Assembly: GCA_903840165.1 (NCBI GenBank)
Contig: CAIMEY010000017.1
Location: forward strand, 1 to 64,000
From: an uncultured Myxococcales bacterium
Lineage (GTDB): Bacteria; Myxococcota_A; UBA9042
Direction of reading: 5' to 3'
DNA: 64,000 nucleotides
The translations under genes and the position numbers were made by a program. Below, piece after piece: positions 2,637 through 62,501 of this stretch. How positions within the stretch are numbered: the first letter of the stretch is position 1; each line of letters opens with the position of its first letter. The notes beneath the pieces were generated by a model, which was not told the origin of the DNA, ran no database searches, and was given only the letters and a program-made list of their open reading frames with translations.

Positions 2637-3401
2637 TCAGGCAGCCTTGGGCAAGCGATTGTCGCGCGGTTGGTACCGCCATGTCCAGCGGAAAGGATTC
2701 ACGCTGAATTTGTTCCAGAAATCGACAAAGCCAAGGATGCGCTGGCTGGCGTGGGCCACGCTTTTAGAGTCGGCGTGTTGGATGACCCGGCGGTTGACGA
2801 TGGAGAAGAAGCACTCGACCAGGTTGAGCCACGACGCGTGGATGGGCGTGAACACAAAATGGAAGCGATTCCCATGATGTTGGGTGAATTTGGTCCAACG
2901 TTTGCTCGGCCCGGCTTTGTGCGTGCTGAGGTTGTCCCAGACGACCTAGACTTCGCCGACTGGATACAACGTGGCGATTTTCTCCAGGAACTCGACAGTG
3001 GCTTGGGCCGTGCGGTGCTCGACCATTGCGACGATGGCGTTGCCGGTGGCAACCTCAAATGCCGCAGGCGCGCAGCAGGTTCCGTGGCGAATATACTCGT
3101 ATTCTTCATGCACTATCGCATGGGGACCAACTTTAGACGGATGTTTGCGACCCAAGGCTTGAACCGACATTTCGTCGATGCGGTCGATGCAGAACACCTT
3201 GGCACCAGCAGGTAGATGGGTATAAATCTCGCAAATTCGTTCGGCTTTGACGCCAAAATCGGGGTCTTTGGTATTGAGCCAGTACCGCACCAGATGCGGG
3301 CGCAAGTCGTTGAAATGCAAGATACGTCCGATTTCGCTGACCGACATCAGCCCCCCCCCGTGAGCACTGCCACCGCCGCGGCTACGGACGCTTGCGTCCA
3401 A
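2637..3401 (-). pseudogene. IS630-family (Tc1/mariner-like DDE_3) transposase remnant, frameshifted and 5'-truncated
   Basis: Three consecutive minus-strand reading frames cover one transposase: 2946-3401, a short piece at 2855-2946 and 2637-2855. The C-terminal piece contains the IS630 hallmark 'HASWLNLVECFF'. The N-terminal HTH region is absent. The fragment abuts the stop of the 3457-5013 gene. Confidence 0.75.
3351..3359. repeat. C9 homopolymer tract (poly-G on the coding strand of the IS630 remnant)
   Basis: Read directly from the sequence: gacatcag-ccccccccc-gtgagc. The tract lies at the N-terminal edge of the IS630 remnant ORF (MDASVRSRGGGSAHGGG) and is slippage-prone. Confidence 0.9.
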
Positions 3402-3456: not shown

Positions 3457-5013
3457 CTATTGGCATGTGCCGCCGTGGCAGGTCTTGGCGTTGCCGCAGG
3501 GAGCGCCGTCAGCGGTCGCTTGGTGCCAACAGCCGCAATAGGGCGCGTTGCAGCCGTCATTGGTGCACGGATTGCTGTCGTCGCACAAGGAAATAGGCTG
3601 ACCAACGCAAAGGCCCGAGATGTGACAAGTCTTGTTCGCAAAATTGTCCAGTCGCCAAACCGCGAAATTCAGGTCGATCGCCCAGCCGACAACAAGCGAT
3701 CCGCCCGGCATGCCAAGAATCGTGCTGCCGGCTTCACCGTAGACGCCGAACTTGAGACGCGATTGAAACTCGCCGCCAATGCCGATTCGCATGACATTTG
3801 GGTCATCATTGTGGCCCGAGGCGCTGCCCCCAAGAACGGCGAACCCGTCATCCACGGAAGCAATGCTAGCCACGGTGCCCACCAGTTCAGTCGAATAGCG
3901 TGAGCCAGCCTGACCATATACGTGGCTCCAGAGTTTCATTCCCGACACGTCGGTGCGGAAGAGCCAGAGAGCCGTGCCGTCGATTGGAGGCGCTCCCCCA
4001 ATTATTTCCGGAGACATCGTCCATCCGAGGATTGCGAATCCGTCCGGCAAGGCGACTACAGATGTCGCTTTATCCGATTGACTTCCACCGTAATCGCGCC
4101 GCCATAGAAAATCGCCAGTGGCGTCAGAGAACAAGAGAAATGCGTCGACATCGTATCCGTTTCCGTTGAAACCATCGCCAACAATCGCGTATCCCGAACC
4201 GGCCGCGACGAGAGCAGCCGCCTCGCCCTTGCTGAGGTTGTCAGACGCGGAACTCCAAACTTGCTCGCCATCATTTCCGATCCCGAGCAAGACCACGTCG
4301 CCGCCGGCGGCGCTGTCCGCTGTGGCCTGCGAACTCGCGGCGACAACGAAACCGCTCGCGGCGGCAACTATTCCCGCTCCCGCCCTCAGAACAGCCCCCC
4401 CATACGTCTTGCTCCAGACAAGATCACCCGACCCGCCGACCTTGAACAGCCAGATTTCCGATTGAAGAAGGGACGCCGTCTCCGTTGGGGAACCCGGCGG
4501 TCCCGTCGTTCCGGCGACGACGACATCGCCGTTCAAGTCAGCGACTAGTCCGGCTACGAAGTCATTGCCACCGCCGCCAAAAGTGTGGTCCCACAGGAGC
4601 TCTCCCTTGGCATCGATTCGTACTACACGCGCGTCACTGAAGCCGTGCGCCAGCGGCATTTCTGGGAAGAACACCATTCCACCGACAATGAATCCGTTGT
4701 CCAATCGGAGTGCGTACCGTGCTGCGGATTGTGTCTTTGCCGGATATGTCGTGAAGAATGGTGCCATACTTGACTGGGTGCACGACGCCTCGCCAGGCAA
4801 CAACGCACCGTCAACGCCGTAGAGACTAGGGACGCTGCCGCAACTTGTCTGAATACCTGAATCGGCTGCATCAATTGAGACGCCACGACAAGCCGCTATG
4901 GACAAGACAAGGAACAACAGGGTGAGCAACGGCCTCAATGCGTTGTGGAACTCGGCACCTTTCGGGCCTGGCCAACCCTGCGTTCTGCAACTGAATTCAT
5001 AGTCTAAGATCAT
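3457..5013 (-). CDS. Lipoprotein with beta-propeller-like repeats and a C-terminal myxo-type cysteine-rich module
   Basis: Signal peptide with lipobox (LSIAAC). At least five repeats of roughly (L/V)W-x3-(Y/F)GG...G(F/Y)(A/V)(V/I)(A/L)G. The C-terminus reads 'CDDSNPCTNDGCNAPYCGC...CGNAKTCHGGTCQ'. Its start overlaps the upstream gene's stop by 4 nt. Confidence 0.7.
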   Translation of the reverse strand: MILDYEFSCRTQGWPGPKGAEFHNALRPLLTLLFLVLSIAACRGVSIDAADSGIQTSCGSVPSLYGVDGALLPGEASCTQSSMAPFFTTYPAKTQSAARYALRLDNGFIVGGMVFFPEMPLAHGFSDARVVRIDAKGELLWDHTFGGGGNDFVAGLVADLNGDVVVAGTTGPPGSPTETASLLQSEIWLFKVGGSGDLVWSKTYGGAVLRAGAGIVAAASGFVVAASSQATADSAAGGDVVLLGIGNDGEQVWSSASDNLSKGEAAALVAAGSGYAIVGDGFNGNGYDVDAFLLFSDATGDFLWRRDYGGSQSDKATSVVALPDGFAILGWTMSPEIIGGAPPIDGTALWLFRTDVSGMKLWSHVYGQAGSRYSTELVGTVASIASVDDGFAVLGGSASGHNDDPNVMRIGIGGEFQSRLKFGVYGEAGSTILGMPGGSLVVGWAIDLNFAVWRLDNFANKTCHISGLCVGQPISLCDDSNPCTNDGCNAPYCGCWHQATADGAPCGNAKTCHGGTCQ

Positions 5014-5918
5014 TCAGGAACCTCCCAGAGCCACGGCTTTCCAGTAAAGTAATCCTTCACGGCGGTGTAGGTCAGAAACGTCGACGACTGAAACACGCCA
5101 GCCGACGCCGCAAGTCCGAGTACTACCACAGGTAATTTGGGGAAATTCGCTTCCAGAAACTGAGCGACCTGAATGGCAGACTGGTGTTGAGTCCAAATCA
5201 AGGCTGCGTTGGGTCCTACGTCCATATAGCCTGGATGAGTCAGAAAATCCTGGGCCATCTTGTTGAAATCGACGGCGGCTGCGGATCCTGGAACAACTGC
5301 CGCTGGAAGGATTGGTGGCTGAATGTAATCGTCCTGAGGAATGTAGTCACACGAGACCGACAGGAGTGCCGCCTCTCGCTCCGAGTAGTTTGCGTCCAAT
5401 AGCACGACCATCGGCTTGAGCAACGAGCGGAGCGCACCGCAGCCGACCCACGCACCTACGCTCACTAGGAACGACTTCGTCAAACTGCCAACCTTGGCCG
5501 GAGCCTCGAAGGATATTGAAGGTCCCCCTACCGCATTCCCGACGAACGGCCCGTTCGGAGCCTTGTGGGGACCGTCGAACGGCAGATCGGCCAGAAGAAT
5601 CGGAATTATTTTAGTTATTCCACCTATCGTCACAATCAACGTGTAGCCGCCCAACGGCGGCCAGCACCTTGGCCAAGGAACATTGGGAATGGGGCAAAAA
5701 ATATCCCCAGGTCCGTTTATGGAAACCTGGCCCGAATACAGTTTCTTGGCGGGAAAGTGTGAAAATTCCGGGCCTTCACATTGAATTGACCATTCTATCT
5801 CAAATTTCATCTCGTATTGTTCGGCATAATATTCGTCAAACCAATGGATGTTGGCGCTGAAACCACACAAATACATTGTCTTCGCCATGACGACCCTCAC
5901 GATTTGCGTTGCGATCAA
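5010..5918 (-). CDS. Hypothetical protein (302 aa), no recognisable domain. GC3 is atypically low, especially in the 5' half.
   Basis: Clean ORF. 4-nt overlaps with both neighbours (5915-5918 and 5010-5013) suggest translational coupling. Codon usage is rich in A/T-ending codons compared with leuS/thrS in the same window. Confidence 0.6.
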   Translation of the reverse strand: MIATQIVRVVMAKTMYLCGFSANIHWFDEYYAEQYEMKFEIEWSIQCEGPEFSHFPAKKLYSGQVSINGPGDIFCPIPNVPWPRCWPPLGGYTLIVTIGGITKIIPILLADLPFDGPHKAPNGPFVGNAVGGPSISFEAPAKVGSLTKSFLVSVGAWVGCGALRSLLKPMVVLLDANYSEREAALLSVSCDYIPQDDYIQPPILPAAVVPGSAAAVDFNKMAQDFLTHPGYMDVGPNAALIWTQHQSAIQVAQFLEANFPKLPVVVLGLAASAGVFQSSTFLTYTAVKDYFTGKPWLWEVPE

Positions 5919-6739
5919 CTCTTGAGCCCCATCTTTGCTTTTGCCAGGATTGACTTCGTTGTCTCGGGCACGGAACTGCTCCAGGCAAGATCCCCAGATA
6001 GTTCAAGCACTGCGACCGGGGTTGAGGTGGCAAGCCCAGCCGATGAGACCGGACTGGTAGTCTGGACTACGAGCGCAACGGTGGCTGCCTTATCCAGGAC
6101 ATAGGTTCCCTGCATGCCAAGCTGGGCTGCGGTCGCCTGCACCGCGCCCTGGGGCGCCAAAAGGAGCCTGGGCTTTGACATGACGAACCCTGGCGCTGCT
6201 CCACCACTGCCGAGTGACGTCGAAATGACGAGATACATAGCCCATTTGGGATTCTTCTCTCTGTCAAAGAAATGCAGCACTTGTGTGGCATCAGCGTTCC
6301 ATTCAAGAATACCATCGGTCTGAGCCGCGCCAGCGGCTCCCGCATATTTGAATGTCACCAACGGGATTGTAATCCACTGTTTTTGCGCGGTCTGTTCTTT
6401 GCCATCGACGACAACGGTCATTGAAATCTGCTTGGGACCTGGATACGGGACCGGTTGCGTGATTATCGGCGGCTTGCCGACAGCCGAGAGAAACGCCACC
6501 ATCGCCGCCGGTAGGTCCACCGGCAGCGTATTGCCAAAGACTCGAACGGAAAACCCGGGCATCGCATCCCATGACGGGTCGCCCGTGCCTAGCTTGATTG
6601 GGCCAATATCTACCGACTGTCCTGGATTGGAGCCCTCGACGCGGATGCGAATCGCGTAGTTTGAGGACCCTTTGTAATCCGTCCAGGCAAGTGATATTGC
6701 AAGGCCGCCTTCCAACGGTTTCGAAGCCTTGAGCCCCAC
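5915..6739 (-). CDS. Hypothetical protein (274 aa)
   Basis: Clean ORF in the same operon, with a 4-nt overlap with the downstream gene. No signal peptide and no recognisable motif. Confidence 0.6.
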   Translation of the reverse strand: MGLKASKPLEGGLAISLAWTDYKGSSNYAIRIRVEGSNPGQSVDIGPIKLGTGDPSWDAMPGFSVRVFGNTLPVDLPAAMVAFLSAVGKPPIITQPVPYPGPKQISMTVVVDGKEQTAQKQWITIPLVTFKYAGAAGAAQTDGILEWNADATQVLHFFDREKNPKWAMYLVISTSLGSGGAAPGFVMSKPRLLLAPQGAVQATAAQLGMQGTYVLDKAATVALVVQTTSPVSSAGLATSTPVAVLELSGDLAWSSSVPETTKSILAKAKMGLKS

Positions 6740-6757
6740 GCGTCCCTCCCCTTGTTC

Positions 6758-6995
6758 TCAGCCGGCCATACCTGCCGCCTGGGCTATCAAAGCGACCTGA
6801 ATATCCGCAGGCGCGGTCGTAGGAAATATCCAACCGCCGGCAGCGAACGACTTCCCAAGTTGCGCAACCCTGCTGATCAAAGCAGGTGGATCCAGGTCGA
6901 CCAACAAGGCCCGATCGTCGCCGAAACTTGCCGGGGCACTGGCAATTCGCCCGCGCAAGGGCGTCCTCGTATCCTTTCCATATCTCGACATCATC
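6758..6995 (-). CDS. Small hypothetical protein (~78 aa from MMSRYGK...)
   Basis: The ORF track gives 6758-7078, but the longer version overlaps the upstream gene in another frame. An ATGATG start at 6995/6992 lies 7 nt after the stop of the 7002-7748 gene. Confidence 0.4.
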
Positions 6996-7001
6996 GCCCC
7001 C

Positions 7002-7748
7002 TTACCACTGCTTGAGTTCGATGGTCGCGCTTTCCAAGGTCGCGCTCGCGCCACCAGCGGTGTAGTAGCCAACGCCAACGTACTTCGCCAATGAATCTAC
7101 AGGGATTGCATACAAACCGTTCGCAGGCACAGTGACAAAGCCCCCTAGCGCTGCGAAATCGGTCCCATTTTCGCTGCCGGTGGCGGTGACGTAGGCATTG
7201 CCGCCCGCCAATCCATTGACTTTGCACAATATTACGCCGCGTTTGAACGCCGACACCACGTGCGACGAATCGGCGATAAAGACCGGTGTCGTGGAAGTGC
7301 GCATTGTGTAACCAGATTTGAGGATTGGGTTGCAGAAGATCGCGTCACTGAACAGCGGCGATACGGTTGCAGTCAAGCGCGCGTCGCCTTGAAGAGCCCC
7401 GCCGACATCGCCGATTACTTGGATGCCAAATCGCACCCACGGGGCAAATTCCGCAAACATTGCAGCGTAGTCGATGCTAAGTTGCTGCCCTGAGCCGACG
7501 CCAGTCGCTATCCCGTCGATGCTATACAGGAAATCGACCCAGGTGCGCTTGTCGGTACTCCACTGCGCGAATACCCTGACCGCAGCGCTGCGAGTGACCG
7601 AAAGTACGTTGATAAAGAGCCGAATTCCAGTCGAGGCCGCAAAATCCCCAAAAGCGTCCGTCCAAACAATGTTGGGCTTGCCGTCGGCGTTGGAAACACG
7701 CGTCTCATCCGCAACTAAAACAATAGGTTGGTACCCCGACATGGTCAT
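7002..7748 (-). CDS. Hypothetical protein (248 aa), first gene of the five-gene operon
   Basis: Clean ORF with no signal peptide and no recognisable catalytic motif. A ~290-bp upstream non-coding region follows, then a structured repeat. Confidence 0.6.
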   Translation of the reverse strand: MTMSGYQPIVLVADETRVSNADGKPNIVWTDAFGDFAASTGIRLFINVLSVTRSAAVRVFAQWSTDKRTWVDFLYSIDGIATGVGSGQQLSIDYAAMFAEFAPWVRFGIQVIGDVGGALQGDARLTATVSPLFSDAIFCNPILKSGYTMRTSTTPVFIADSSHVVSAFKRGVILCKVNGLAGGNAYVTATGSENGTDFAALGGFVTVPANGLYAIPVDSLAKYVGVGYYTAGGASATLESATIELKQW

Positions 7749-8037
7749 TTTCCCAGATATGCCAGCGGATTGCGCCAGCGGGTTATCAACGATATTCTAC
7801 TGTTTGCGCGCCGCTGAGGCTACGGTGGCAGTAACCCTACTACCGAGCGCGACGTGTCGCAAGCGATTTCTTGGCGAAGATGTGAAGATTTGTAAGGGGC
7901 GGGCGATTCTTGCGCTGCAGAGCCGCGTAACCGCTCGGTGATCCACGCCTTCCCGCCGCGCCCGACCTCACCCAAGCTGGCGCCGAACACCTTCCCGCGC
8001 GCAGGAGCCCACCTACGCCGCACCGTCACCCGCGCGC

Positions 8038-8290
8038 CTAGTACCTCAAACCCGGAGTTCCTTCCGGGTTCGACGTACAGTGTTTGCTTCTAGTTTCAAG
8101 GGGGCGCGCCATCTCCACTTTCGCCGTGCCAGACTTGGCGCGGCTCATGCGCTGCGCCCGCCGTGGAGTCCTCTCCTCGCCCGCGGGCGGGCTCACCCCG
8201 GCGTTCGGCCGGGTCCCCGGCCGAACGTCCACAACGCCGCGAGCTTTCCGGTAACCGGGAAAGCACTTAGGGTTACGTGTACTAGAGCCA
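8038..8290 (+). repeat. Structured intergenic repeat (family 2), copy 1, carrying a ~130-nt GC-rich internal insertion
   Basis: Shares 5' 'cctagtacctcaaacc...tgtttgcttctagtttcaagggg' and 3' 'ccggtaaccgggaaagcacttagggttacgtgtactag' with the copy at 10433-10551. Terminal ctagtac/gtactag are inverted. Contains a conserved GTAACC(C/G)-12nt-GGGTTAC hairpin. Confidence 0.6.
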
Positions 8291-8481
8291 CCCAAGCCAG
8301 AATGCGCTGCACGCGCGCCCAACGCTAGCAGCAAGTCGGCACGTCGGCCCAGCAACCGGTTCGGCCGCAGCATCAGGTCAAAGGTCGCGGCACAAATCCT
8401 CCAGCCATCGCCGGCTACGCTCCAAACTATTGAAAGTTCAGCGTAATCGCCCTCACAGGTCTTGCACCCCTGCCCCACGCC

Positions 8482-9336
8482 CTAGCGCGGCACGAGCTCC
8501 ACGCGGCGGTTCTTGGCCCTGCCCGCCTCGCTGCCGTTGCTAGCTACAGGAGCCAGGGAGCCAACACCGTAACCTTTCAGACGGTTAGCTGCAATACCGT
8601 GTTCCCCAATAAGTGCCGCGACCACTGCATTGGCCCGCGCCAGGGACAACTTGAGATTGGCCTCGAGTTCGCCGACGTTGTCGGTGTGCCCGACCACACT
8701 AACCTGCAAGCTACTATTATTTTTCATAACTTTTGCCACCTCAGCCAAAGCTGGTGCCGATGCGGGCTTGAGGACCGCAAGGCCGGTGTCAAACAGAATG
8801 CCGTAGACCGCGGCGTGCCCTAGCGCCTGCAAGTCTCCGGCCAAGGCCGCGGCGTCGGCCGTCACGTCTTGCTGCATCGCTTCGCGCTCCACCACGGTGA
8901 GCATCCAACCTTCTGGAATGTAAGCGTTAATATGGACCCACACTTCCTTGCTGCCGCGGCTGACGCGCCAGTAGCCGTTGCCGTCGTCGTCGCGGTACAC
9001 CTGGGTGCCGCCGATTTTGCTGATGGCGTTGTCGTAATTGCGCAGGATTTGCAGGCGTGTCACGCCGGTCTTGCCGGTTTGCTGGGCGTAGCGAATCTCG
9101 AAGAGTTTGCCCTCTATTTTGAGTTCCTCGCGCTTGGCGTTGTAAAAGGTGTGCTGATCAAAGTCATGGGTTTCGCAGCGTTCGATGAGGTAGGTGGGCA
9201 TTCGGCTCAGCAGCGGATGGTCCTGGCAGCCGTCGGCGTCGCCGGGCGCGGCCCAAGCGCTGCCGCTCAAGAGGCAAAGGGCTAGGAGCAGGCCGGTCAG
9301 CGTCGGGAAGGTTCGGTTTGACATGATATCCTCCAA
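8482..9336 (-). CDS. OmpA-family peptidoglycan-binding protein (signal peptide plus C-terminal OmpA/MotB domain)
   Basis: N-terminal signal (LLLALCLLSGSAWA). C-terminal 'VVGHTDNVG...NLKLSLARANAV...NRRVELVPR' is the classic OmpA_C-like motif. Confidence 0.85.
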   Translation of the reverse strand: MEDIMSNRTFPTLTGLLLALCLLSGSAWAAPGDADGCQDHPLLSRMPTYLIERCETHDFDQHTFYNAKREELKIEGKLFEIRYAQQTGKTGVTRLQILRNYDNAISKIGGTQVYRDDDGNGYWRVSRGSKEVWVHINAYIPEGWMLTVVEREAMQQDVTADAAALAGDLQALGHAAVYGILFDTGLAVLKPASAPALAEVAKVMKNNSSLQVSVVGHTDNVGELEANLKLSLARANAVVAALIGEHGIAANRLKGYGVGSLAPVASNGSEAGRAKNRRVELVPR

Positions 9337-9427
9337 AGTAAGGCCCCAAGCGTACGCCTAACCAAGCGCTTTGACCAGCCTGCCATGAGACTGGTCGCCC
9401 TTGGATTTAGCCCGCCCTGCGCTGCGC

Positions 9428-9530
9428 GAGGGATGTGGACCGCGGGGCGGCGGCGTCCGACGCCGTTTTCCGCCGCTTAGGCGGAAAATCCCAGCCCGGT
9501 CGCCGCTTCGGCGACGCGCCAATACCCACG
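9428..9530 (+). repeat. REP-like triple-hairpin intergenic element (family 1), copy A
   Basis: Three adjacent palindromes: ggcgtccgacgcc, ttttccgccgcttaggcggaaaa and gtcgccgcttcggcgac. A near-identical inverted copy lies at 16653-16755 and a variant at 25374-25475. Confidence 0.7.
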
Positions 9531-9650
9531 CCTGCAATCGCCACCTGCTCGCGTACGACCAGTCCGCTACAACTACCTACCGCCAATCGCTTTTCTCCCG
9601 GCGCCACCGAGCCCTCGCCAACCGCCGTGCGCCGCGCTATGCTAGCGCCA

Positions 9651-10426
9651 TGACCATCGACCGCCCGCCGCCACCGCCACCGCCACCGCCGCCCGCCTGG
9701 GTGGTCGTGCCCTGCTACAACGAGGCCAAGCGTCTACAACCATCTGCATTTCTTGAGTTCCTTTGCACCCCGGTCCACGTCCATTTCGTCAATGACGGCT
9801 CAAGCGACGCCACGGCCGCGGTCCTAGCCACCCTGTGCGAGGGCAGCCAAGGCCAATTTTCCTTTGAGAATCTGGAGCATAACCTCGGCAAGGCAGAAGC
9901 CGTCCGCCACGGGCTGCTGCACGCGCTCAACCAAGGGGCGGTCAGCGTCGGCTTCTTGGACGCCGACCTGTCGACGCCACCAAGCGAAATGCTGCGTCTT
10001 TTAGCGCATTTACAAGCCAACCCGCAGTTACAGGTGCTGCTGGGCGCGCGGATTCGCTTGCTCGGCCATCAGGTGCAACGCTCACCGCTGCGGCACTACT
10101 TGGGCCGCGTATTCGCCACAGCCGCGTCGCTGACCCTGGCCAAACCGATTTACGACACGCAGTGCGGCGCCAAGTGGTTTGCCGCCGGTCCGGGGCTGAG
10201 GGCGGCGCTGAGCGAGCCGTTTGAATCTCGTTGGATTTTTGACGTGGAACTGCTGGCTCGGCTCTTGCACGGCTGGCAAGGACAAGACGCCTTAGCGGGC
10301 GATGCCATTGCGGAATTGCCGCTTCAGCAGTGGCGCGACGTGGCCGGCTCCAAGCTCAGCGCCGCAGCGATGGCCAGAGCGGCTCTAGATTTGGCGAGAA
10401 TTGCCCAACGATTACGGCGTTCTTAA
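9651..10426 (+). CDS. Family 2 glycosyltransferase (dolichyl-phosphate mannose synthase-like)
   Basis: 'VVVPCYNEAKRL...VNDGSSDAT...GFLDADLSTPP' is a GT2 N-terminal DxD-type fold. The start is taken at MTIDR, because the upstream part of the long ORF is a repeat element. Begins with a P10 run encoded by a (ccgcca)n microsatellite. Confidence 0.8.
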
Positions 10427-10432
10427 GGCCTA

Positions 10433-10551
10433 GTACCTCAAACCTAACGTTCCTTGTTGGTTCGAGATGCTGTGTTTGCTTCTAGTTTCAAGGGGAAGTG
10501 CTGCCCTGTGCGTTCCGGTAACCCGGAAAAGACTTAGGGTTACGCGGACTA
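10433..10551 (+). repeat. Structured intergenic repeat (family 2), copy 2 (compact form)
   Basis: See copy 1. Bounded by ctagtac...ggactag. Contains 'tgtttgcttctagtttcaagggg' and the GTAACCC-loop-GGGTTAC hairpin. Confidence 0.6.
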
Positions 10552-10595
10552 GCCAAGCGCCCGCAGCCCGTCCGGCCCGGCCCGGCCCAGCCATC

Positions 10596-11072
10596 CTAGA
10601 CGGCCACGCGCGGGTCCTTAGGCCCACTGACGCGTTGCACTTCCACGCCGTGATCTTCCAAGTACGCGCAACCATTGGCACCGCCATAGCCGCCGTCGAC
10701 GACGATGACCCGGGCAATGCCGGCATGGTGCAGCAATTTCGCACACATCACGCAGGGTTCGCCGGTGATGATCAGCCAAGCCCCGGCCGTGGCGACGCCT
10801 GAAGCTGCGGCATTACAGATGACGTTCATCTCCGCATGATGACAGCCGATTTCCATGCGCTCGCCCGAAGGCACGCCCATGCTATCGCGCAGGCACACGT
10901 CGCCGCCGCACAGCTCGCCACCGCCGCGGGGACCGCCATTGTAGCCATCCATCAGGATGACGTTGCGCAGCGGATCGAGCAGCAATGCCCCGAACTTACG
11001 CCGCGGACAGTTGGAAGCCTGACTCAGAGCTAGGCATTGCTCGAGCCGGATCCGCAGGTGCTTTTCCTTCAT
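10596..11072 (-). CDS. dCMP/cytidine deaminase family zinc enzyme
   Basis: 'CHHAEMNVI' and 'PCVMCAKLL' zinc-binding motifs (H-A-E ... P-C-x2-C). Confidence 0.85.
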   Translation of the reverse strand: MKEKHLRIRLEQCLALSQASNCPRRKFGALLLDPLRNVILMDGYNGGPRGGGELCGGDVCLRDSMGVPSGERMEIGCHHAEMNVICNAAASGVATAGAWLIITGEPCVMCAKLLHHAGIARVIVVDGGYGGANGCAYLEDHGVEVQRVSGPKDPRVAV

Positions 11073-16565: not shown

Positions 16566-16652
16566 AAAAAAGCTAGGCAGGATGCTGTCTTAGCCCGGGC
16601 CAATGGCGACGCGGGCAAGCCTTGGTGGGAGCCCCATCGTCTTGCTGTTTTG

Positions 16653-16755
16653 GGGGCGTCGCCGAAGCGGCGACCGGGCTGGGATTTTCCGCCTCAGCGG
16701 CGGAAAACGGCGTCGGACGCCGCTGCTCCGCAGTCCACATCCCTCGCCCACCCGC
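16653..16755 (-). repeat. REP-like triple-hairpin element (family 1), copy B, inverted orientation
   Basis: Its reverse complement matches copy A almost base-for-base, including cgagggatgtggac...ggcgtccgacgccgttttccgccgc. Confidence 0.7.
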
Positions 16756-19707: not shown

Positions 19708-21996
19708 TCAGAGCGAAACCTGCCCCGCCGCCGGCATCCGCGCGGTATTGTAGCCACCAGACTGCCCGAAATCATTGGCTCCCCAGCACCAAACGCGGCT
19801 GTCTTTGTCAAGCGCACAACTATGAGCGATGCCGGCCGCCACGCTCTTGGCGCCGAAGACTTGCTTGTTGGCAAAGCCGGTCGCACTGCCCGTCGGCCCA
19901 CTCCCATCTAACTGCCCTAAATCATTATTTCCCCAACAAATGACCGTGCCCGAATCCTGCACGCCACAGGCATGGTTCCTGCCGATGGCCATCGTCTTGA
20001 ACTGCAAGGCCGGGAGTTCAACGGCGTGACCATCGTCGGGCACAGTGGCACCGCCCCACATCAAGGGCGAATCCGGCATTCCCCAACACCACGGTTCGCC
20101 GGTATCCGTCAGGGCGCAGAAGACGTCATTGCCGGCATAAACGTGCGCAAACTTCGGGGCGCCGGGAGGTAGAAACACCGATATTGGTTGTGAATTGGTG
20201 TCCGCTGCCCCTGGCGTGCCTATCCGATTGGAATACGTATTGCCGCCCCAACATGCCAGGGCTCCATCGTCATGTACGCCGCACGTCGTGTCGGCTAAGG
20301 TAGCGATTTCCTTCCATTGGTAGCCTCCCTGCACGGTGACAAGAGTGCTGGAGTCCAGGGTCGAGCCATTACCTAACTGCCCGTAATTATTTCGACCGAT
20401 GCAACGGACACTACCGTCATTGACCAGGACGCAGGCGTTGTTGCTGCCGACGGTGATTTGACCAATCCCGTCGATCTTTCCTCCCGCGGTGGGCATGCAA
20501 GGGCCGCCAAAGCAGAACTGTTGATTGCCCCAACACCGTAATTGGCCTGAGGACTCGGCAATGCAGCCACCACCCCAGGCTAGGCCCAAGTCGGCGCCAT
20601 CCGGCAAAGGCACCAGCGTTGGGCTGCTGTAGGTGGGCACACCCGTGGCCAAGCCGAGGGCGCCCGCGCCATTATCGCCCCAACACCATGTTTTTCCAGT
20701 TAAATCTTGAGCACACGTGCGCCCATCGCGCGCGCGCAGTCGGGCAAAAGTCAGGGTCTCTGAGAGGCGCTGCACATAGGAGGTCGCGAGTCTGCCATAG
20801 ACTTGACCATAGTCGTTGCTACCCCAGCAAAACACCTGGTCGTCTTTTCGCAGAGCGCAAGCGTGCTGCTCGCCGACGCTAAGTCCAACGAGATCGCTCA
20901 ACACCGCGTATGAGTCGGCCTCAACAACAGGTGCCGGCACGGGACGGTTGAGGTCTCGACCGTCGCCAAGCTGGCCCAAGTCATTGCGTCCCCAGCAGAG
21001 GACTTGCCGCGAAGTAGTTAGCATACAAGCGAAATCCGAGCCGACACCGACCTGAACTGCGGCTGCTTGGGCAAGGACGCGCGTCGGGCCGCTCTGCTGA
21101 CAACTGGCGTCGGAGCAACTAGGCAAGGTGCCCCAACAATACACTTCTCCGCCCCGGTTGACGGCACAAACAGTCAAAGAACTAGCTGAAATATCAACGA
21201 TATTATCGATTCCAGGTACCTGCACGGGCGCATGGCTGCCCCCGCCTGCACCAACGCCGAGCTGCCCACTATCGTTGATGCCCCAGCACCAAGGCTTGCC
21301 TTGAGCGACGGCGCAGACGAAGTAATAGGCCGTCGCCGCAGCAGTAACACCTTTAATTCCAGACACATTGACGGCTCCTGCATGGTCTGCAGTGTCACCG
21401 ACGCCCAACTGCCCGTAGTCGTTGGCTCCCCAACAAGCCAACTGGCCGTCGACTTGGATTGCGCAAGTAACCGAAGATCCGACAACGACGCGTGTTGCCT
21501 TGCCAATTCCGCTCACTGCACCCGGAGCGCCGCCATCGCCGGCGGTCCAGGCGCTGCTGGACGAGTCCCCCCAACAGTAGACGGCACCGCCCTTGTCGAC
21601 ATAGCACGCGTGATTGGACCCCGTCGCAACGGAAACCGCGCCAGATACTGGGGAACCGTCCGCCGCTTGAACGGTGGCGATGGAGACAAGCTTGGTCTGC
21701 GTGTCGGTGCCCCAGCAGCGCAAATGTTGGCTACCGTCGACCACACAACTGCGCATGTCTGCAGCAGACAGCCGCGTAGGCTGCAGCCAAGCCGGGGGCC
21801 AGTTGAGCGGCGTTGCCTCGGCGGTGGCAGGCGGAAACGCTGTTGGTCCAGGGATATGCTCAGCGCAGCCCGTCATCAGGGCCATGAGGGCAAGCGCCCA
21901 CAGGCCTGCCACTCGCCGGAAAAGGTCCGCACGCGCAGGCGCGCAGAGGCCGGCCAGGTTGGCGCGCCCCCTTAAAACCACAAGCAATTGAAGCAT
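19708..21996 (-). CDS. RCC1-repeat (regulator of chromosome condensation-like) beta-propeller protein, secreted
   Basis: At least seven repeats of 'CWG.ND.GQLG.G'. N-terminal signal at MLQLLVVL...LMTGC. Confidence 0.8.
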   Translation of the reverse strand: MLQLLVVLRGRANLAGLCAPARADLFRRVAGLWALALMALMTGCAEHIPGPTAFPPATAEATPLNWPPAWLQPTRLSAADMRSCVVDGSQHLRCWGTDTQTKLVSIATVQAADGSPVSGAVSVATGSNHACYVDKGGAVYCWGDSSSSAWTAGDGGAPGAVSGIGKATRVVVGSSVTCAIQVDGQLACWGANDYGQLGVGDTADHAGAVNVSGIKGVTAAATAYYFVCAVAQGKPWCWGINDSGQLGVGAGGGSHAPVQVPGIDNIVDISASSLTVCAVNRGGEVYCWGTLPSCSDASCQQSGPTRVLAQAAAVQVGVGSDFACMLTTSRQVLCWGRNDLGQLGDGRDLNRPVPAPVVEADSYAVLSDLVGLSVGEQHACALRKDDQVFCWGSNDYGQVYGRLATSYVQRLSETLTFARLRARDGRTCAQDLTGKTWCWGDNGAGALGLATGVPTYSSPTLVPLPDGADLGLAWGGGCIAESSGQLRCWGNQQFCFGGPCMPTAGGKIDGIGQITVGSNNACVLVNDGSVRCIGRNNYGQLGNGSTLDSSTLVTVQGGYQWKEIATLADTTCGVHDDGALACWGGNTYSNRIGTPGAADTNSQPISVFLPPGAPKFAHVYAGNDVFCALTDTGEPWCWGMPDSPLMWGGATVPDDGHAVELPALQFKTMAIGRNHACGVQDSGTVICWGNNDLGQLDGSGPTGSATGFANKQVFGAKSVAAGIAHSCALDKDSRVWCWGANDFGQSGGYNTARMPAAGQVSL

Positions 21997-22064
21997 ATCC
22001 GAACCCGCAAGGGAACTCTGGGTCGGATGGCTGCTTGGCATTGGGCACATCACCGACTCCCCCG

Positions 22065-23099
22065 TTAGAACCGCCAGGCGACGCCCATGCCCGCGGGCAC
22101 TGGGCCTGGGGTCACGGCAATCCGTTCGGAATGACTGATCAATCTCCATACGCCATAACCGGCTACCGCGACGCCCACGCCCAGCAAGCTGTAGCCTGTG
22201 TTGCGCCGCCCGGCGATGGATGCAGCCCGTTCATGCGCCTGATCAAAGGTGATTTTGCCTGTCACATGGCCATTGACCAGCCCAAGGTCCTTGTCCAAAG
22301 ACTGCCGGTCGACCGTGGCCCACGCATACAAACCAACACCGGCCAACGCCAGCACTGAGCCCCCGCCGGTTAGCCACCAACCTGTTGAACGGCCAAGAGA
22401 TTCGCCGGGCACCGCCTGAGGCCCGATGGCCGGTTTCTGCAGGGTTTGCTCCTTGGCCGCTAGGTCTGCCAAGTAGGCCTGAGCCTGACCGCGCTCTGGC
22501 GTCGATTCGGCACACAGCTTGACAAAGCGCGCCAGATAATCACGAGCTAACTCCTTGTCCCCTATCTGAAAATACGTGCGGCCGGCGCGGTACAGCAGAA
22601 CGGGCTCGCCGGGTCGCCGTTCGGCCGCGTCCGCGTACAGATGGGCGGCGAGGGCCAAACGATTGGCCTTGGCGTGCTCGTCGGCTTCGCGAATCATGGC
22701 GTCGATGCGTCCAGAGGCTATTTCCTCAAGGTACTTCTGCGCTTGCCCTGCACGACGCGAATCTTCAGGCGAAGGCTGATGCCCGCCAACCGCGGCTAAA
22801 AACTCACGATAATACTTTTCAGCCACATCCAAATGGCCCGCCACGTGCTGGGCTCGCGCTGCGCCATAGACATAGGCGGGCGTTGTTGGGTCTGAATGCC
22901 AAGCGTCCAAGTACAGTTGCGTGGCGCGGTCGTGGTCCCCCGCCTCATAGGCTGCTGTCGCATTCTTTGCCATGGAAAGCGCGGACTTGGCGCGATCGAC
23001 CGCGAAGACCGGCAGGGCCAGCCCAAGGCTCCAGGCGAGTACGCCCGCAACGATTCGGTGACGCCTCATGGGCACCCCAGCCATGCGGGCTGGCCGAGA
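22065..23099 (-). CDS. TPR-like repeat protein with C-terminal transmembrane anchor
   Basis: Tetratricopeptide-like helical repeats ('AEKYYREFLAA', 'AQAYLADLAAK'). C-terminal hydrophobic segment ending ...GPVPAGMGVAWRF. A paralogue lies at 46337-47236. Confidence 0.55.
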   Translation of the reverse strand, partial: SRPARMAGVPMRRHRIVAGVLAWSLGLALPVFAVDRAKSALSMAKNATAAYEAGDHDRATQLYLDAWHSDPTTPAYVYGAARAQHVAGHLDVAEKYYREFLAAVGGHQPSPEDSRRAGQAQKYLEEIASGRIDAMIREADEHAKANRLALAAHLYADAAERRPGEPVLLYRAGRTYFQIGDKELARDYLARFVKLCAESTPERGQAQAYLADLAAKEQTLQKPAIGPQAVPGESLGRSTGWWLTGGGSVLALAGVGLYAWATVDRQSLDKDLGLVNGHVTGKITFDQAHERAASIAGRRNTGYSLLGVGVAVAGYGVWRLISHSERIAVTPGPVPAGMGVAWRF

Positions 23100-23335
23100 A
23101 GCGGCACCGAGTAAGGCTGAAAATACAGACCGTTGGATTGCGAACCGCCGTACATGCCGCTTTGCCCTCATCACGCGCCAAGCAAGGAGCGCCCCTGCCG
23201 CAATGCTTCCGGCAAGTTTGCACCCCTGGCCTAGCCCGGTCAAGCGCGCCGAGTTCCGCAGTCTTGCACGGTCTGTGCAGCAATAGGACGCCGCCGCTGC
23301 CGCGCGGGCAATCAAAACCCTTCAAAATGATGGCG

Positions 23336-25165: not shown

Positions 25166-25373
25166 ATCACTCCTTGGGCGGGACTGAGCAGGCCGAGTAT
25201 CAGACCAAAGCCCGTCGTTTCACGCCCTTTGCCGAACATCAAGCCAAGCCTGCGACCGAAGGTCGACCGCGGTCCCGGTAGTTTGGGCTTGGCCTTGGGC
25301 GACGTCAAGTCGCGGACAAGCCGAGCAAGTAGCTCGTCGCAAGACCGCCAACTGGTCAATTCTTTAGGCGCAC

Positions 25374-25475
25374 GAGGGATGTGGACCCCGGCACGGGGCG
25401 GCGTCCGACGCCGCTTTTGCTGACGGGGCGCTAGCCACGGCGGCAAAAGTCCCAGCCCGGTCGCCGCAGGCGACG
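25374..25475 (+). repeat. REP-like element (family 1), copy C (diverged middle hairpin)
   Basis: Shares 'cgagggatgtggacc', 'ggcgtccgacgcc' and 'cccagcccggtcgccgc' with copies A/B. The middle stem is changed to cttttgc...gcaaaag, i.e. pairing is preserved. Confidence 0.6.
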
Positions 25476-25496
25476 TGCCCAAACTCAGACGCTGCC

Positions 25497-56912: not shown

Positions 56913-57476
56913 ATGAACCGCGCCCCCCACCTGAGCGACGATTCCGTGCCTACGGCCCTGCACATCGGCCCCGCTGCGCATCGCGTTTGCGACGCTCTGG
57001 GCGATTTGATGGCGTTTTGGGGCTTTCCGCGCTCGCACGGCCGTATTTGGGCCCTGCTGTACCTGCACGACCGCCCGCTTCATGCCGGCGAAATTGCTGA
57101 AAGTCTGGAACTTTCTTCCGGCCAGGTCTCTATGTCGCTGCGCGACCTGGAGCACTGGAGCGTGGTCCACCCGCAGAGACAGCCCGGCCAGAGACGCACG
57201 TGGTATCACCCTGAAATCAACCTGTTTCGCATGATCGCCACGGTCTTTGCCCAACGCGAACTGCAACAGGTGCGGACGATGGCGCAGACGCTGCAGGTAG
57301 CCCTGCGCGAGTTGAAGAGCCAGCCGCATAGCCCGGCAATTGCCTTTCGTCTCAAGAGGATGGAAAGCCTTGTCGCGATGACGGAACTGGGCCGCAGCCT
57401 GATCGAGCGCTTGATCGCGGGCAAGTTGCTGCCGCCGGCCGTGCAAGCCGCGCTGGACCAGGACCTCACGGGCTGA
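56913..57476 (+). CDS. GbsR/MarR-type winged-helix transcriptional regulator
   Basis: 'LMAFWGFPRSHGRIWALLYLHDRPLHAGEIAESLELSSGQVSMSLRDLEHWSVV' resembles the GbsR-family HTH. Confidence 0.65.
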   Translation: MNRAPHLSDDSVPTALHIGPAAHRVCDALGDLMAFWGFPRSHGRIWALLYLHDRPLHAGEIAESLELSSGQVSMSLRDLEHWSVVHPQRQPGQRRTWYHPEINLFRMIATVFAQRELQQVRTMAQTLQVALRELKSQPHSPAIAFRLKRMESLVAMTELGRSLIERLIAGKLLPPAVQAALDQDLTG

Positions 57477-57605: not shown

Positions 57606-60600
57606 CTAGGGTAGACTTGCCGCAACGTAGACCACGGCACCGGGCTTGGTGGGCACGCCGGGCCACGCGGAATCGCCCCAGCAACCCACCGCGCCCGTGA
57701 CTGTAACCGCACAGGCGTGGTTGTCATGGGCGGCTACGGCGACCACTGCGGCGATCGGTACCGACAGCGCCTTGGCGACGGCCGAAACCCCAGGCGTAGT
57801 GCTGCATTGGCCGACAGTGTTGTCGCCCCAACAGGCCAGTTGTCCCAAGGCATCGGCTGCGCAATTGAACTGCTCGCCCGCTGCTATCGCCTTTGCGGCC
57901 TGGGCAAAAACGACGGTTTCCGTTGGAATAGCAAGCGGTTGCTTACCTGTTACGCCCGAGCCCAGTTGGCCATGATCGTTGGTGCCCCAGCACTGCGGGG
58001 GCCCGTCCGGGTAGCGCAGACACAGGTGGTAGTCGCCGATGGTGCAATCGCTGGCGCCGGCTTTGATCGTGAGGGTCAGGGGGGGCGTATCGGCAGGCGG
58101 GTTGGCGACAAAATCGACGCTTCCCCAGCACTTCAACTCGTTGCTTTGACTACGAACACAGGTGGAATTGCTTCCAGCGGCCAGCCACGCGGCTTGACCA
58201 AACAGACCAACAAGGGTGGGCGGCACCTTGGTTCCGACAGGCACAATGCCGGCTTGCAGATGCAGGTTGTCGCCCCAGCACCAAACCGTCTGATTTTGCA
58301 GCAGAGCGCACGCGTGGTTGTCTCCCAGGGCGATTTGCGTCACCGGTTGAGGCAGCGCCACGGCCAACGGCGTGGAATTGCTGAGCAAAGCGATTGCGCC
58401 TACTTGCCCAAGCATGCCGTGGCTGTTGTTGCCCCAGCACTGCACGGTACCGTCCTGGAGTAAGGCACAGGCAGCGTCCGATCCCGCTGCAATTTGAAGG
58501 GCTTTCCCGGGCAAGGGCACGGTCTGGGGCACGGTCTGCTCGGTGGCGTCGCCCGTCCCGAGTTGCTTGACCTGATCGGCACCCCAGCAGGAAACACTGC
58601 CCGAAGTAAGCAGCGCACAAGAGAAATTGCCACCGGCGACCACCGTCTTGGCCCAAGGCGTGATGCACGCGCCAGCCGCACAGACCAGGCCAGCACCACA
58701 ACCGGTGCCGTCGCCCAGTTTCTGGTGGCCGCAGCCGACCTTGGCATCACAACTATCTAATGTGCAAGGATTATCATCGTCACAGGATATGGCGATGCCT
58801 GCTGTGCAAAGGCCGGTGACACACACGTCTTTGACCGTGCAGGCATCTTGGTCATCGCAGGTCGCGTCCTGGGCCAGGTGCACACAGCCCTTGCTGCTAT
58901 CGCAACTATCTAATGTGCAAGGATTTCCATCCCCGCAAGCCAAAGGCGTTCCTTGGCACTGCCCGCCGCTGCACAGGTCGGCCACCGTGCATAGGGTACC
59001 ATCGTCGCAGGGCGCCGTACTTTTCACGTGAATACAGCCGCTTACTGGATCGCAGGCCTCCAAGGTGCAGGAGTTGTTGTCCTCGCAAGCGCTGTCCGAC
59101 CCTGCGCAAAGGCCGCTGCTGCAGCCGATGCCGCCCCATGGGTTCGAGCGCAGCCAAAGGCCTGATTTGTCTTGAGAACCGGCGGCAACCCAACCCCACG
59201 GACTCGCAGCCACCGCCTCAAGACCACCGGTCGTAGTCGGTAGCAACTGCCACGCCAGCGTCCCGACGAGGTCCGCACGTACCAAGCGGGCCTGCGACGA
59301 TTGGTCGACAGCAACGGATTTTCCTGCAAGAATGAGGGTATCGCCAGCAGACGCTACGCCAGCTTGCCATTGCCCCGTCCAGTCCGACCAAGTGTGCTGG
59401 GCCAGAACTTGACTGGCCGACAAGTCCAGCCGCGCCAACCAAGGCTTTGAAATTCCGCCTATTTCACATCGGCCAACTGCAACAACTCCTCCTGCCACCG
59501 GTAGTAGGGCCGCGATGTGGGTGGAGGCCCCGGTAGCGCACGCAACGCCAATGGCGGTGGCCGCCTTCACGCCTTCCCAACTTGCGCTAACCACGTAACT
59601 CTGCACAGGATCTGCCGCAAGACCAACTGTTTCGCCGGCAATGATTAGGTGATCCCCGGCATCGGCCAAGGCTGTCGCTCGTACGGGTGCGTCGCCAATC
59701 AGGGCCAGGGGCTTGCGCCAAATCTGTTTATCTTCAAGGCGTTCAATGACAAGACTTGGGGCCCCAGCACTGCCTGTTGTCGAGGCCACCACAGCGCCAC
59801 CATTGTGCAGCACAGCCGCCGCGGGTTGGTCTGGCCAATCGGTCGCCTGAGGCACCGGCGGAGGCTCCTGCCCAGGCTTGAGATTAATCGCCAACAAAAA
59901 CGAATTCTTATCTCCGCTCGTTCCAAGCAGAAGAACGCTGCCTGCCAGGGGAACGGCCAGGCGATAGCTAGCCGCGGTACCATCAGGACTCAGCCAGTTT
60001 CCCAGCAGTTTCCCTTGTGCCGTGCGACGTTGCAGCCATGCCCTGGGCTGCAGGACTCCCTGACCATCTTGGGCCTGCACGCCAGCAGCCAACCAGTTGC
60101 CATCGGCTTCTGCGGCAACAGCGTAAAACTGGCTGAAAAGACTAGACTCTCCAGCAGCCGCGGCGACCCAGCTCTCGGGCCCCGTTTGGCACTGCCCGGC
60201 CACGCAAACGTCAGGCCCTGTGCAGGCTTGACCGTCGGGGCAAGGTCCGTCGATAGCCGTTTGACTACAACCCGCGGGCAGACAAGTACCTGTTGTGCAA
60301 GGATTACCATCGTCACAATCGGCCGGCTGGCACGGTGACACCACCTCTGTGGCTGCATCGGCCGCATCGACCAAGCCTTCGCTGGTGACCGAATCTGGCA
60401 TGATGTCAAGGATTTCAGGGGTAATCGTCGAGTCCTCTGCGTCCAGGGCAGTATTGGCGTCCACTGAGTCAATACCCTGAATTTCCGATGTTTTACCATC
60501 GCTTGCAGCTACATCACCGCCATCGGCATGGGCGGCCCAGTAGGCGTCGAGGTCGGCCCCCACGTCACCAAGTCCACAACCGCTCAATAGTGAAAGAAAA

Positions 60601-61157: not shown

Positions 61158-62501
61158 ATGTTCCAGACCAACCCAAGGCAAGCCGCAGGCGCGGACGCCA
61201 TGGTGTTCAGACGAGGCGGAGCCACAGGGCTGCTCGTCTGGCTGGTTGTGACGAGTTGGCTCAGCGGTTGCGGCTCAGCCCTGTTTGAGCGCGCACCAAA
61301 TGCAAAGAAATACAGGGCTTTACCCTTAGGCACAGAGGTCAAGGTCGTGGGCTCCTCCGGTGAGCTACAACAACCAACGGAAATCATTGGTGTACTTCAC
61401 ACGACCACCAAAGGTGATCCGGCCAATCGCGATGAAGCCGCTGGAACTTTACGCGAACATGCCGCGAGGTACGGCTGCGATGGCGTCGCCCACCTAACGT
61501 CGACTCGGCGCGAAATCAAGACCTTGCGCCGCAACCGGAGTTTGGGCCCCAACGGCGTGCCCATCTACACCGATGTGCCTGTGATCTCTGCAGAACACGA
61601 TTGGATCGCCCAGTGCATTCGCTCGGCCGCGGCCCCGGCTGAAGCAGCTGTACAGGTGGCCGCGAACACGCGCAAGCCGGACGTGGATGTCAAGCCCGAG
61701 CCCAAAGCAGAGCCCAAGCCTGTGAAACGCCCCAAGAAACCCGACGTTCAGCCGGAGCCCAAACCGGAACCGAAACTCGAGCCGCGGCCCGAGCCCAAGC
61801 CGGAACCGCGCATCGAGCCCAAGCCCCAAATGCGGCCTGAGCCCAAGCCTGAACCCCGCGTAGAACCCAAGCCAGAACCACGGGTTGAGCCTAAGCCGGA
61901 ACCCCGAATTGAGCCCAAGCCGGAGCCGCGCCCAGAGCCCAAGCCCAAGGTCGAGCCGCCGCCGGTAGCCCCGGCTTTGGACGCGGGCGACCCCAAGCTG
62001 GGGGCTGAGGTCGCTCGCTTCTTTTTGCAATGGAGTGGCGCACTTGAACGCAATGACATCGACAAGATCTGCGCAAGCTTTGACGACACCGTCTTCATCG
62101 ACGTCTCAGCCTCGGCACCGAAGATCCGCATCAAGCAAGAGTTTCCGGTAGAAGCGGCCTGCGAGTCGGTGCGCAACGGCGACCTAGCCGCCTACATTCG
62201 CGATTTTGGCCCGGCCGAAGTTCACTCGGAGCCCAAGATGCTGATTCCAGACCTCTTTCGCATCCACGGCGGTGCCTACTTGCGCCTCGATGACGCCGCC
62301 CAGCGCCGCTATGCGGACGCCGTGATCAAGGGCCGCGAAGGCAAGAAGCAGTTGGCGTGCACCCTTTACAATGTAGTGCCCGCTGAGAATCTCTTTAAAG
62401 TTTCAATGACTTGTAGTGGCGTCAACTCGTTTCGCGTGCTAATGAAGAGAACGGGCGAAAACCAGTTCAAAATCATGCAATTGCAGCACTCTAGGCCCTA
62501 G
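61158..62501 (+). CDS. Lipoprotein with (EPKPEPRx)n proline-rich tandem-repeat linker and a C-terminal globular domain
   Basis: Lipobox LSGCGS. About 11 octapeptide repeats. The C-terminal 150 aa is non-repetitive. Confidence 0.65.
   Translation: MFQTNPRQAAGADAMVFRRGGATGLLVWLVVTSWLSGCGSALFERAPNAKKYRALPLGTEVKVVGSSGELQQPTEIIGVLHTTTKGDPANRDEAAGTLREHAARYGCDGVAHLTSTRREIKTLRRNRSLGPNGVPIYTDVPVISAEHDWIAQCIRSAAAPAEAAVQVAANTRKPDVDVKPEPKAEPKPVKRPKKPDVQPEPKPEPKLEPRPEPKPEPRIEPKPQMRPEPKPEPRVEPKPEPRVEPKPEPRIEPKPEPRPEPKPKVEPPPVAPALDAGDPKLGAEVARFFLQWSGALERNDIDKICASFDDTVFIDVSASAPKIRIKQEFPVEAACESVRNGDLAAYIRDFGPAEVHSEPKMLIPDLFRIHGGAYLRLDDAAQRRYADAVIKGREGKKQLACTLYNVVPAENLFKVSMTCSGVNSFRVLMKRTGENQFKIMQLQHSRP
61680..61960 (+). 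repeat. 24-bp period coding tandem repeat (gagcccaagccggaaccgcgcatc-like), about 11 units
   Basis: Read directly from the sequence. Encodes PEPKPEPR(I/V)E units. Confidence 0.8.

Follow-up and report, generated by a model that had tools for sequence, protein, structure and literature searches.

The question raised by this locus is why two copies of a small structured element stand on either side of two genes, one for an OmpA-family protein and one for a GT2 glycosyltransferase. The locus lies in a 64,000-nucleotide stretch of DNA from an uncultured Myxococcales bacterium (contig CAIMEY010000017.1, positions 1 to 64,000; hereafter the window). An earlier note on this DNA had suggested that the element could be a miniature inverted-repeat transposable element (MITE), a small-RNA or attenuator family, or a pair of recombination sites. 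Our analysis favors the first of these options, which is supported by at least 10 dispersed copies, terminal repeats of ~40 bp, CTAG boundaries, mixed orientation and decayed relics. We consider it probable that the element represents a lineage-restricted MITE family, most likely moved in trans by a DDE transposase targeting TA/CTAG.

The similarity of the two copies (c1 and c2) is real and far beyond chance. A repeat finder run on the window aligned their 5′ parts (68 nt, 8036-8103 and 10428-10495) at 84% identity and their 3′ parts (50 nt, 8236-8285 and 10503-10552) at 82% identity, in both cases as direct repeats. The exact 24-mer GTGTTTGCTTCTAGTTTCAAGGGG occurs twice in the window, once in each copy, versus no occurrence expected in shuffled sequence, and the pattern of the 3′ hairpin was also found exactly twice. 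Thus two homologous copies in the same orientation do bracket the OmpA-like and GT2 genes, as had been claimed. Their exact limits were fixed by comparison with the other copies described below. Copy c1 is an intact long-form element of 248 nt (8038-8285, + strand; CTAG at 8038-8041 and 8282-8285; 98.5 bits with covariance model R2). Copy c2 is a short-form element of 123 nt without the long module (10430-10552, + strand; CTAG at 10430-10433 and 10549-10552). The conserved internal GTAACCC/GGGTTAC stem reported earlier was recovered in both copies as GTAACC(C/G)...GGGTTAC. The inverted tips CTAGTAC/GTACTAG hold for c1, whereas c2 has CTAGTAC on the left and GGACTAG on the right. The GC-rich extra segment of c1 was confirmed as well; it is 132 nt long (8104-8235) and contains the 10-bp palindrome described before (GTTCGGCCGG at 8203-8212, CCGGCCGAAC at 8217-8226).

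Further copies were found beyond this pair. A covariance model (R1) built from c2 and from c1 without its extra segment detected one more window copy, c3, which lies on the opposite strand (36.6 bits, E ~1e-9), and a second model (R2) confirmed it (39.1 bits, E 4e-10). This copy (21959-22037, - strand) is a degraded relic; its right end is gone, and what remains comprises the left hairpin, the core (TTGCTTGTGGTTTTAAGGGG) and 12 nt from the start of the long module. Another R1 candidate (57300-57390, 11 bits) was rejected; it lies inside a coding region and has no features of the element. Intergenic repeats are frequently translated by gene callers, and such spurious translations were therefore used to seek copies outside the window. 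Concatenated six-frame translations of the element were compared with a database of 5.8 billion proteins, which returned a PAP2 protein (P0003) and two spurious open reading frames (P0005 and P0006). A HMMER search of 1.84 billion representatives with the spurious open reading frame over c1 added P0007, P0008, and P0009. Four intact copies were located on contigs L090 (c4, 10035-10284, - strand), L092 (c5, 804-1054, + strand), L093 (c6, 7397-7647, - strand) and L095 (c9, 2918-3166, - strand, with a diverged left tip). A 5′-truncated relic (c10, ~10137-10301, - strand) is also present on L095, and at two more loci (P0007 and P0008) the element was seen as spurious peptides only. In total, at least 10 copies occur at 10 unrelated loci, eight of them with DNA (three in the window and five elsewhere) and two as peptides; c1 and c2 are not a pair peculiar to this locus. 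The unbiased copy density, taken from the window, is 3 per 64 kb. Identity to c1 is 92% for c4, 90% for c6, 87% for c9, 86% for c5, and 76% for c10. The four contigs come from the same samples as the window and have the same G+C (0.61), which fits an origin in the same population but is not proof of it. A possible extra relic in L090 (18856-18930, - strand; intergenic, with a core-like TTTGGCTCTAGTTTCAGGGAG) was too weak to count (R2 16 bits, E 0.0075).

The copies share sharp limits and a common anatomy. In a multiple alignment both boundaries are CTAG in all five intact copies, and homology stops exactly there. The bases outside CTAG are unrelated among these copies (gc, gg, ga, ga, and gc on the left; ag, tc, tt, gc, and cc on the right). 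Alignment of 11 ends revealed terminal inverted repeats of ~40 bp, starting with CTAGTAC-NN-GTAACCC-N-AAGT (end signature CTAGTACCTGTAACCC...). Both ends of each of the five full-length copies carry, in inverted orientation and with no more than 7 mismatches, a 26-nt consensus, CTAGTACCTGTAACCCGAAGTTCCTT, that is found nowhere else in ~107 kb. The left terminal inverted repeat of c1 (8038-8080, + strand) is an imperfect hairpin (GTACCTCAAACCCGGAG / TTCCGGGTTCGACGTAC). It is followed by the 24-nt A/T-rich core (8080-8103, + strand), the best conserved internal block of the family, and by the GC-rich long-form module (8104-8235, + strand), which includes the palindrome mentioned above. The right terminal inverted repeat (8243-8285, + strand; reverse complement CTAGTACACGTAACCCTAAGTGCTTT...) carries a GGTAACC/GGGTTAC stem. 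Each terminal repeat holds an inverted GTAACCC...GGGTTAC pair, so that each end can form a hairpin; the left hairpin of c4 has a perfect 14-bp stem. The 5′ and 3′ hairpins are reverse complements of each other, and the reverse strand of the 5′ hairpin was recognized by those positions of the model that describe the 3′ hairpin.

The long form measures 248-251 nt, and the size range including c2 is 123-251 nt. The 132-nt module is common to c1, c4, c5, c6, c9, and the peptide-only copies P0007 and P0008, and parts of it remain in the relics c3 and c10. Copy c2 is the only one without it, and no separate copy of the module was found elsewhere in the window. The description of this segment as a nested insertion in copy 1 was not borne out, and the direction has to be reversed. 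Because the module is present in the other four intact copies and has left traces in relics, c2 is an internal-deletion derivative, and the long form is the standard and ancestral element. A coding role was considered and rejected; in six-frame translations the frames differ between copies and are interrupted by stops.

The element is small and non-coding, it carries terminal inverted repeats, and its dispersed copies have sharp boundaries and unrelated flanks, all of which is typical of MITEs. The copies also form an age spectrum, from 92% down to 76% identity to c1, with truncated relics in addition. In the mechanism that we propose, a transposase encoded elsewhere in the genome would bind the terminal repeats, excise the element and insert it into intergenic DNA. 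Insertion could occur at TA within CTAG with duplication of TA, as in the IS630/Tc1-mariner type, or it could produce a 4-bp CTAG duplication, as in IS5-type MITEs. Copies c1 and c2 would be independent old insertions in two spacers, lying by chance on either side of the OmpA-like and GT2 genes, and not the ends of an excisable island. We infer that such independent insertion best explains their flanking position. A more speculative side effect is that hairpins of the element in neighboring mRNA may alter 3′-end stability or termination; effects of this kind have been reported for Correia and REP elements.

Among known systems, the MITEs of the IS630/Tc1-mariner type (Correia of Neisseria, RUP of Streptococcus pneumoniae, and Nezha of cyanobacteria) are similar in size (~100-250 bp), in being non-coding, multicopy and intergenic, in their terminal inverted repeats and in occurring in either orientation. 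Correia elements also exist in a long and a short version, distinguished by an internal segment, as does the element described here. Unlike these MITEs, it has no sequence similarity to known elements, and its ~40-bp repeats are longer and each internally palindromic; no IS630-like partner transposase was found for it in the DNA collected. A passage in PMC2170065, citing Tenzen and Ohtsubo (1991), states that IS630 prefers TA in 5′-CTAG-3′ and that the family duplicates TA. The junctions of our element, C-TA[...]TA-G, match the preference given in that passage and are compatible with a TA duplication. MITEPsy1 of Pseudomonas syringae is an IS5-type MITE of 100 nt bounded by terminal inverted repeats; CTAG or YTAA serves as its insertion site, and these 4 nt become duplicated (PMC3189936). 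The presence of CTAG at both ends of the five intact copies resembles MITEPsy1. Unlike IS5-group MITEs, the element has terminal repeats that are unrelated to GGAAGGT-type ends, a duplication that is not separable from the repeat, and no partner insertion sequence in the DNA searched. Given the palindromic nature of CTAG and the lack of an empty site in the DNA compared, this tetranucleotide may be target, duplication or tip of the element, and the superfamily may be of the IS630 or the IS5 type. The REP/REPIN, ERIC, and BOX repeats are also intergenic, palindromic and transcribable, and stop codons immediately precede many of their copies. The architecture of BOX and ERIC is modular, with internal segments that may be present or absent. 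The element differs from all of these in its defined long terminal inverted repeats and its conserved non-palindromic core.

Several observations weigh against a MITE that is passively moved by a DDE transposase. The palindromic CTAG may be the tip of the terminal repeat, and a target-site duplication is then not separable from the element. No empty site was detected when the joined flanks were compared with all collected DNA, and no autonomous element or transposase with matching ends was present in ~107-120 kb of DNA of the organism. Hairpin-forming ends are unusual for derivatives of either IS630 or IS5. At one stem position c4 has a G-C pair where five copies have C-G, a change that looks compensatory. 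All 11 substitutions between the 5′ parts of c1 and c2 fall in 27 of the 68 positions (chance ~1e-5 under uniform spread, for blocks chosen afterwards). None of them is in the first 17 nt or in the 24-nt core, and the core is still recognizable in relics. The better conservation of the core relative to the hairpin stems hints at a constraint beyond transposase binding. In addition, the assignment of the copies outside the window to the same organism rests solely on sample co-occurrence and G+C.

Since the ends form hairpins and the core is conserved above the stems, readings beyond a passive MITE have to be considered. There is a small chance that the element belongs to a new class of hairpin-ended elements with a non-DDE enzyme (HUH/Y1 or another single-strand transposase), or that it is a MITE whose core was recruited as a common regulatory or small-RNA module controlling many unrelated genes. 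The more specific version, in which the element is moved as single-stranded DNA by an HUH/Y1 tyrosine transposase (REPIN/RAYT-like, or as an IS200/IS605-derived PATE) with the hairpins for recognition and CTAG as the cleavage tetranucleotide, appears unlikely to us. It would account for hairpins at both ends, including the perfect stem on the left of c4, for the top-strand stems GTAACCC/GGGTTAC at both ends, for the single compensatory pair change and for the inseparable target duplication, which is expected for this class. Moreover, a 352-aa protein with an IS200-like Y1_Tnp (PF01797) domain is encoded ~8 kb from c6 on a sister contig of L093 (a1GFp6gc 75-1133; the last 93 nt of that contig correspond to L093 1-93). 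However, the outer ~26 nt of the ends are inverted copies of each other including the loops, as in classical terminal inverted repeats and not as in same-strand left-end and right-end hairpins. No such hairpin or GTAACCC motif was found in the 340 nt downstream of the Y1_Tnp gene, the one flank that can be read. A length of 123-251 nt with a long conserved interior is unlike REPs (20-40 nt) and REPINs, CTAG is found in place of the REP-type GTAG tetranucleotide, and covariation of the stems did not exceed the shuffled control.

That last result also bears on the proposal of a structured non-coding RNA family (multicopy small RNAs or elements of 3′ untranslated regions, with the 24-nt core as a seed or protein-binding region), to which we give a slighter chance still. 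The A/T-rich core is conserved, has hairpins on both sides and, in the predicted fold of the short form, is largely left unpaired; in addition, the stop codons of co-oriented genes closely precede c2 and c3. The long copy c1 folds far better than its shuffles (z ~-4.9), but both strands do so alike, as expected for palindrome-rich DNA, and the short copy c2 does not fold above shuffles (z -0.55 and -1.65). Pairing is retained in the apical stem of the 5′ hairpin despite 7 positions that differ between c1 and c2. However, the RNAalifold covariation term for four long copies was unfavorable (+1.94 kcal/mol), with two compensated pairs versus ~17 with a broken member. In the 5′ helix of six copies, 83.3% of the cells are paired versus 80.5% in column shuffles (42 of 500 shuffles were as high), and the one pair with a double-sided change was matched by 226 of 500 shuffles. 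Covariation, proposed earlier as a check, was thus not significant. The Rfam scan, the other suggested check, gave no match at gathering score in the whole window; in a permissive search of the locus (E up to 10) the best hit on the element was a partial RAGATH-25 at chance level (E 5.8; 13.9 bits, with the gathering score at 49). Because the 5′ hairpin contains GGTTCGA, which resembles a T-loop, the window was scanned for tRNA and tmRNA genes, and none was detected. Neither sigma-70-like promoters nor intrinsic terminators were found at or beside any window copy, and inspection by eye for sigma-54, extracytoplasmic-function sigma factor, parS, and integration host factor consensus sites gave no convincing match. 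Mixed orientation relative to genes together with terminal inverted repeats is not expected of a cis-regulatory RNA or a gene-like small RNA, and neither such repeats nor abrupt CTAG boundaries have a role in an RNA gene. The small-RNA or attenuator option of the earlier note therefore gained no support. We read the hairpins as inherited palindromic DNA that is probably in slow decay, rather than as an RNA fold under selection. The least probable reading, in our view a very remote one, is that c1 and c2 are attL/attR-like recombination sites of a 2.1-kb OmpA-GT2 cassette, integrated or excisable, or that they form the arms of a composite transposon flanked by MITEs. The copies are direct, lie 2.1 kb apart and bracket exactly two genes, and relatives that keep the M32-deaminase gene pair (L010 and L021) have no adjoining OmpA or GT2 gene; these relatives are, however, too distant (64-70% protein identity) to be informative. 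Solitary copies occur at other loci. In contrast to att cores that have just been duplicated, c1 and c2 are of different form (248 nt against 123 nt) and share only ~84% identity. The window contains no tRNA gene, and no domain of an integrase or recombinase was found in neighboring genes. In G+C (0.61-0.65) the segment does not stand out from the DNA around it, and the same arrangement was observed in all contigs with the OmpA-like gene or the deaminase, as far as they reach. There is accordingly no support for a pair of recombination sites, and none for a composite-transposon history of the segment.

The gene context agrees with dispersed intergenic insertion of a MITE. All copies with DNA are intergenic. 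Relative to their neighbors, c3, c5, and c6 are in sense orientation and c1, c4, and c10 in antisense; c2 lies between convergent genes and c9 between divergent ones. Copy c1 is located within the 739-nt spacer between the orphan gene u246 (7002-7742, - strand) and the OmpA-family gene (8482-9324, - strand), antisense to both. Copy c2 starts 4 nt past the stop codon (10424-10426) of the GT2 gene (9650-10426, + strand); 43 nt separate its end from the stop of the dCMP deaminase gene (10596-11072, - strand), which is convergent. The stop of a TPR gene (22065-23315, - strand) is 27 nt upstream of copy c3, and c3 extends into the reading frame, open at this point, that belongs to an RCC1-repeat lipoprotein gene (19708 to ~21990, - strand). 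The frame of this lipoprotein (signal peptide ...FRRVAGLWALALMALMTGC) stays open through c3 (21900-21990, - strand), and the only plausible in-frame starts upstream of the signal peptide (TTG 21990 and GTG 21984) fall inside the c3 core. Insertion of c3 may have supplied or displaced the start of this gene.

The order and spacing of genes were the same in the contigs that carry the OmpA-like gene or the deaminase, and c1 and c2 were present wherever a contig reached them. All nine contigs with the deaminase gene have this arrangement as far as they extend. Excision of the 2.1-kb segment, another check proposed earlier, was not observed: no strain without the segment was found among the contigs carrying these neighboring genes. 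Exact protein matches put the window at one end of a 281-kb lake-metagenome contig (ENA ERZ27313596). Five contigs are nearly identical to the window (L001-L005, 99.9-100% identity), come from several lake samples and offer no usable variation. No integrase-like domain was detected in the neighboring genes (the rest of the window was not screened). An integron attC identity was rejected by eye, since no RYYYAAC/GTTRRRY core sites are present and the neighboring genes have no integrase-like domain.

The range of the element appears narrow. The closest genomes by M32 carboxypeptidase are metagenome-assembled genomes of freshwater Myxococcota (Baikal, Mendota, Tanganyika, and similar lakes) with 64-70% protein identity, which points to an uncultured myxobacterium without a close sequenced relative as the source. 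Thirteen related Myxococcota genomes were compared by M32 synteny; two keep the deaminase beside M32, and neither the OmpA and GT2 genes at this place nor the element were found in any of them. No copies were detected with R2 in 1.41 Mb from 80 other genomes, including these 13. The scans of larger collections used exact core words, which were chosen before the variable positions of the core were known. Exact 19-21-mers of the core gave no match in 185,579 representative genomes (the source genome is not among them), and viral contigs gave none or chance matches only. Four core-word matches in JGI metagenomes were dismissed as chance, all of them in low-G+C contigs. A BLAST search with the long form against plasmid and phage collections returned no match, and a full-text literature search for myxobacterial MITEs turned up a single paper, which deals with acidobacterial genomics and not with myxobacteria. 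The kind of element is well known; this family appears to be new and lineage-restricted.

The analysis adds an undescribed MITE family and a second small repeat family to a poorly known uncultured lineage of freshwater Myxococcota. It also removes two more exciting readings of the locus, an excisable OmpA-GT2 island and a new riboregulator. If a partner transposase is found, the combination of palindromic terminal repeats with CTAG specificity could be of modest interest to transposon specialists. The practical consequences concern assembly and annotation. Short contigs of the same population end or start inside c1, c2 or the second repeat family (L004 and L005, which correspond to window positions 8207/8220 to 9485/9507; also 7WUARB7l and 3hoAlO0f), as is typical of multicopy repeats; the element thus accounts for assembly breaks of this population at these points. 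It also accounts for false proteins and N-terminal extensions produced by gene callers, and P0003-P0009 are all such artefacts. In the PAP2 protein P0003, the ~110 aa at the N-terminus are a false extension translated through c4, and P0004-P0009 are spurious open reading frames partly or wholly inside copies of the element. The corrupted gene calls are at L090 10001-10340, L092 846-1268, L093 7031-7540, and L095 2971-3159.

The second repeat family (family B) is unrelated to the element, intergenic and ~100-118 nt long, with copies at 9423-9528 (+ strand), 16649-16750 (- strand) and 25370-25487 (+ strand). Two copies are 94% identical, and the third is ~74% identical to each. They contain GC-rich nested hairpins, with a loop of variable length in the third copy, and a terminal GUCGCCG-CUUC-GGCGAC hairpin. 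No Rfam match to the three copies was found, and their covariation term was slightly unfavorable. The copy at 9423-9528 lies inside the flanked segment, between the OmpA-like and GT2 genes. The GT2 protein begins with ten consecutive prolines (MTIDRPPPPPPPPPPAW...), for which a (CCG/CCA)n tract (9662-9694, + strand) codes.

On the other side of c1, u246 is part of an operon of orphan genes (3457-7742, - strand) that encodes proteins of 246, 78, 274, 292, and 518 aa without Pfam domains. A single homologue of the 246-aa u246 protein (55% identity) was found in the database of 5.8 billion proteins. The homologue is encoded on a 6-kb contig in a similar string of genes, adjoining an IS21 IstB fragment, and the orphan-gene cluster may itself be mobile. 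Comparison of the window with itself also revealed local direct repeats at 61767-61946 (83 nt, 76%) and 58746-58931 (33 nt, 91%), which probably lie within coding sequence.

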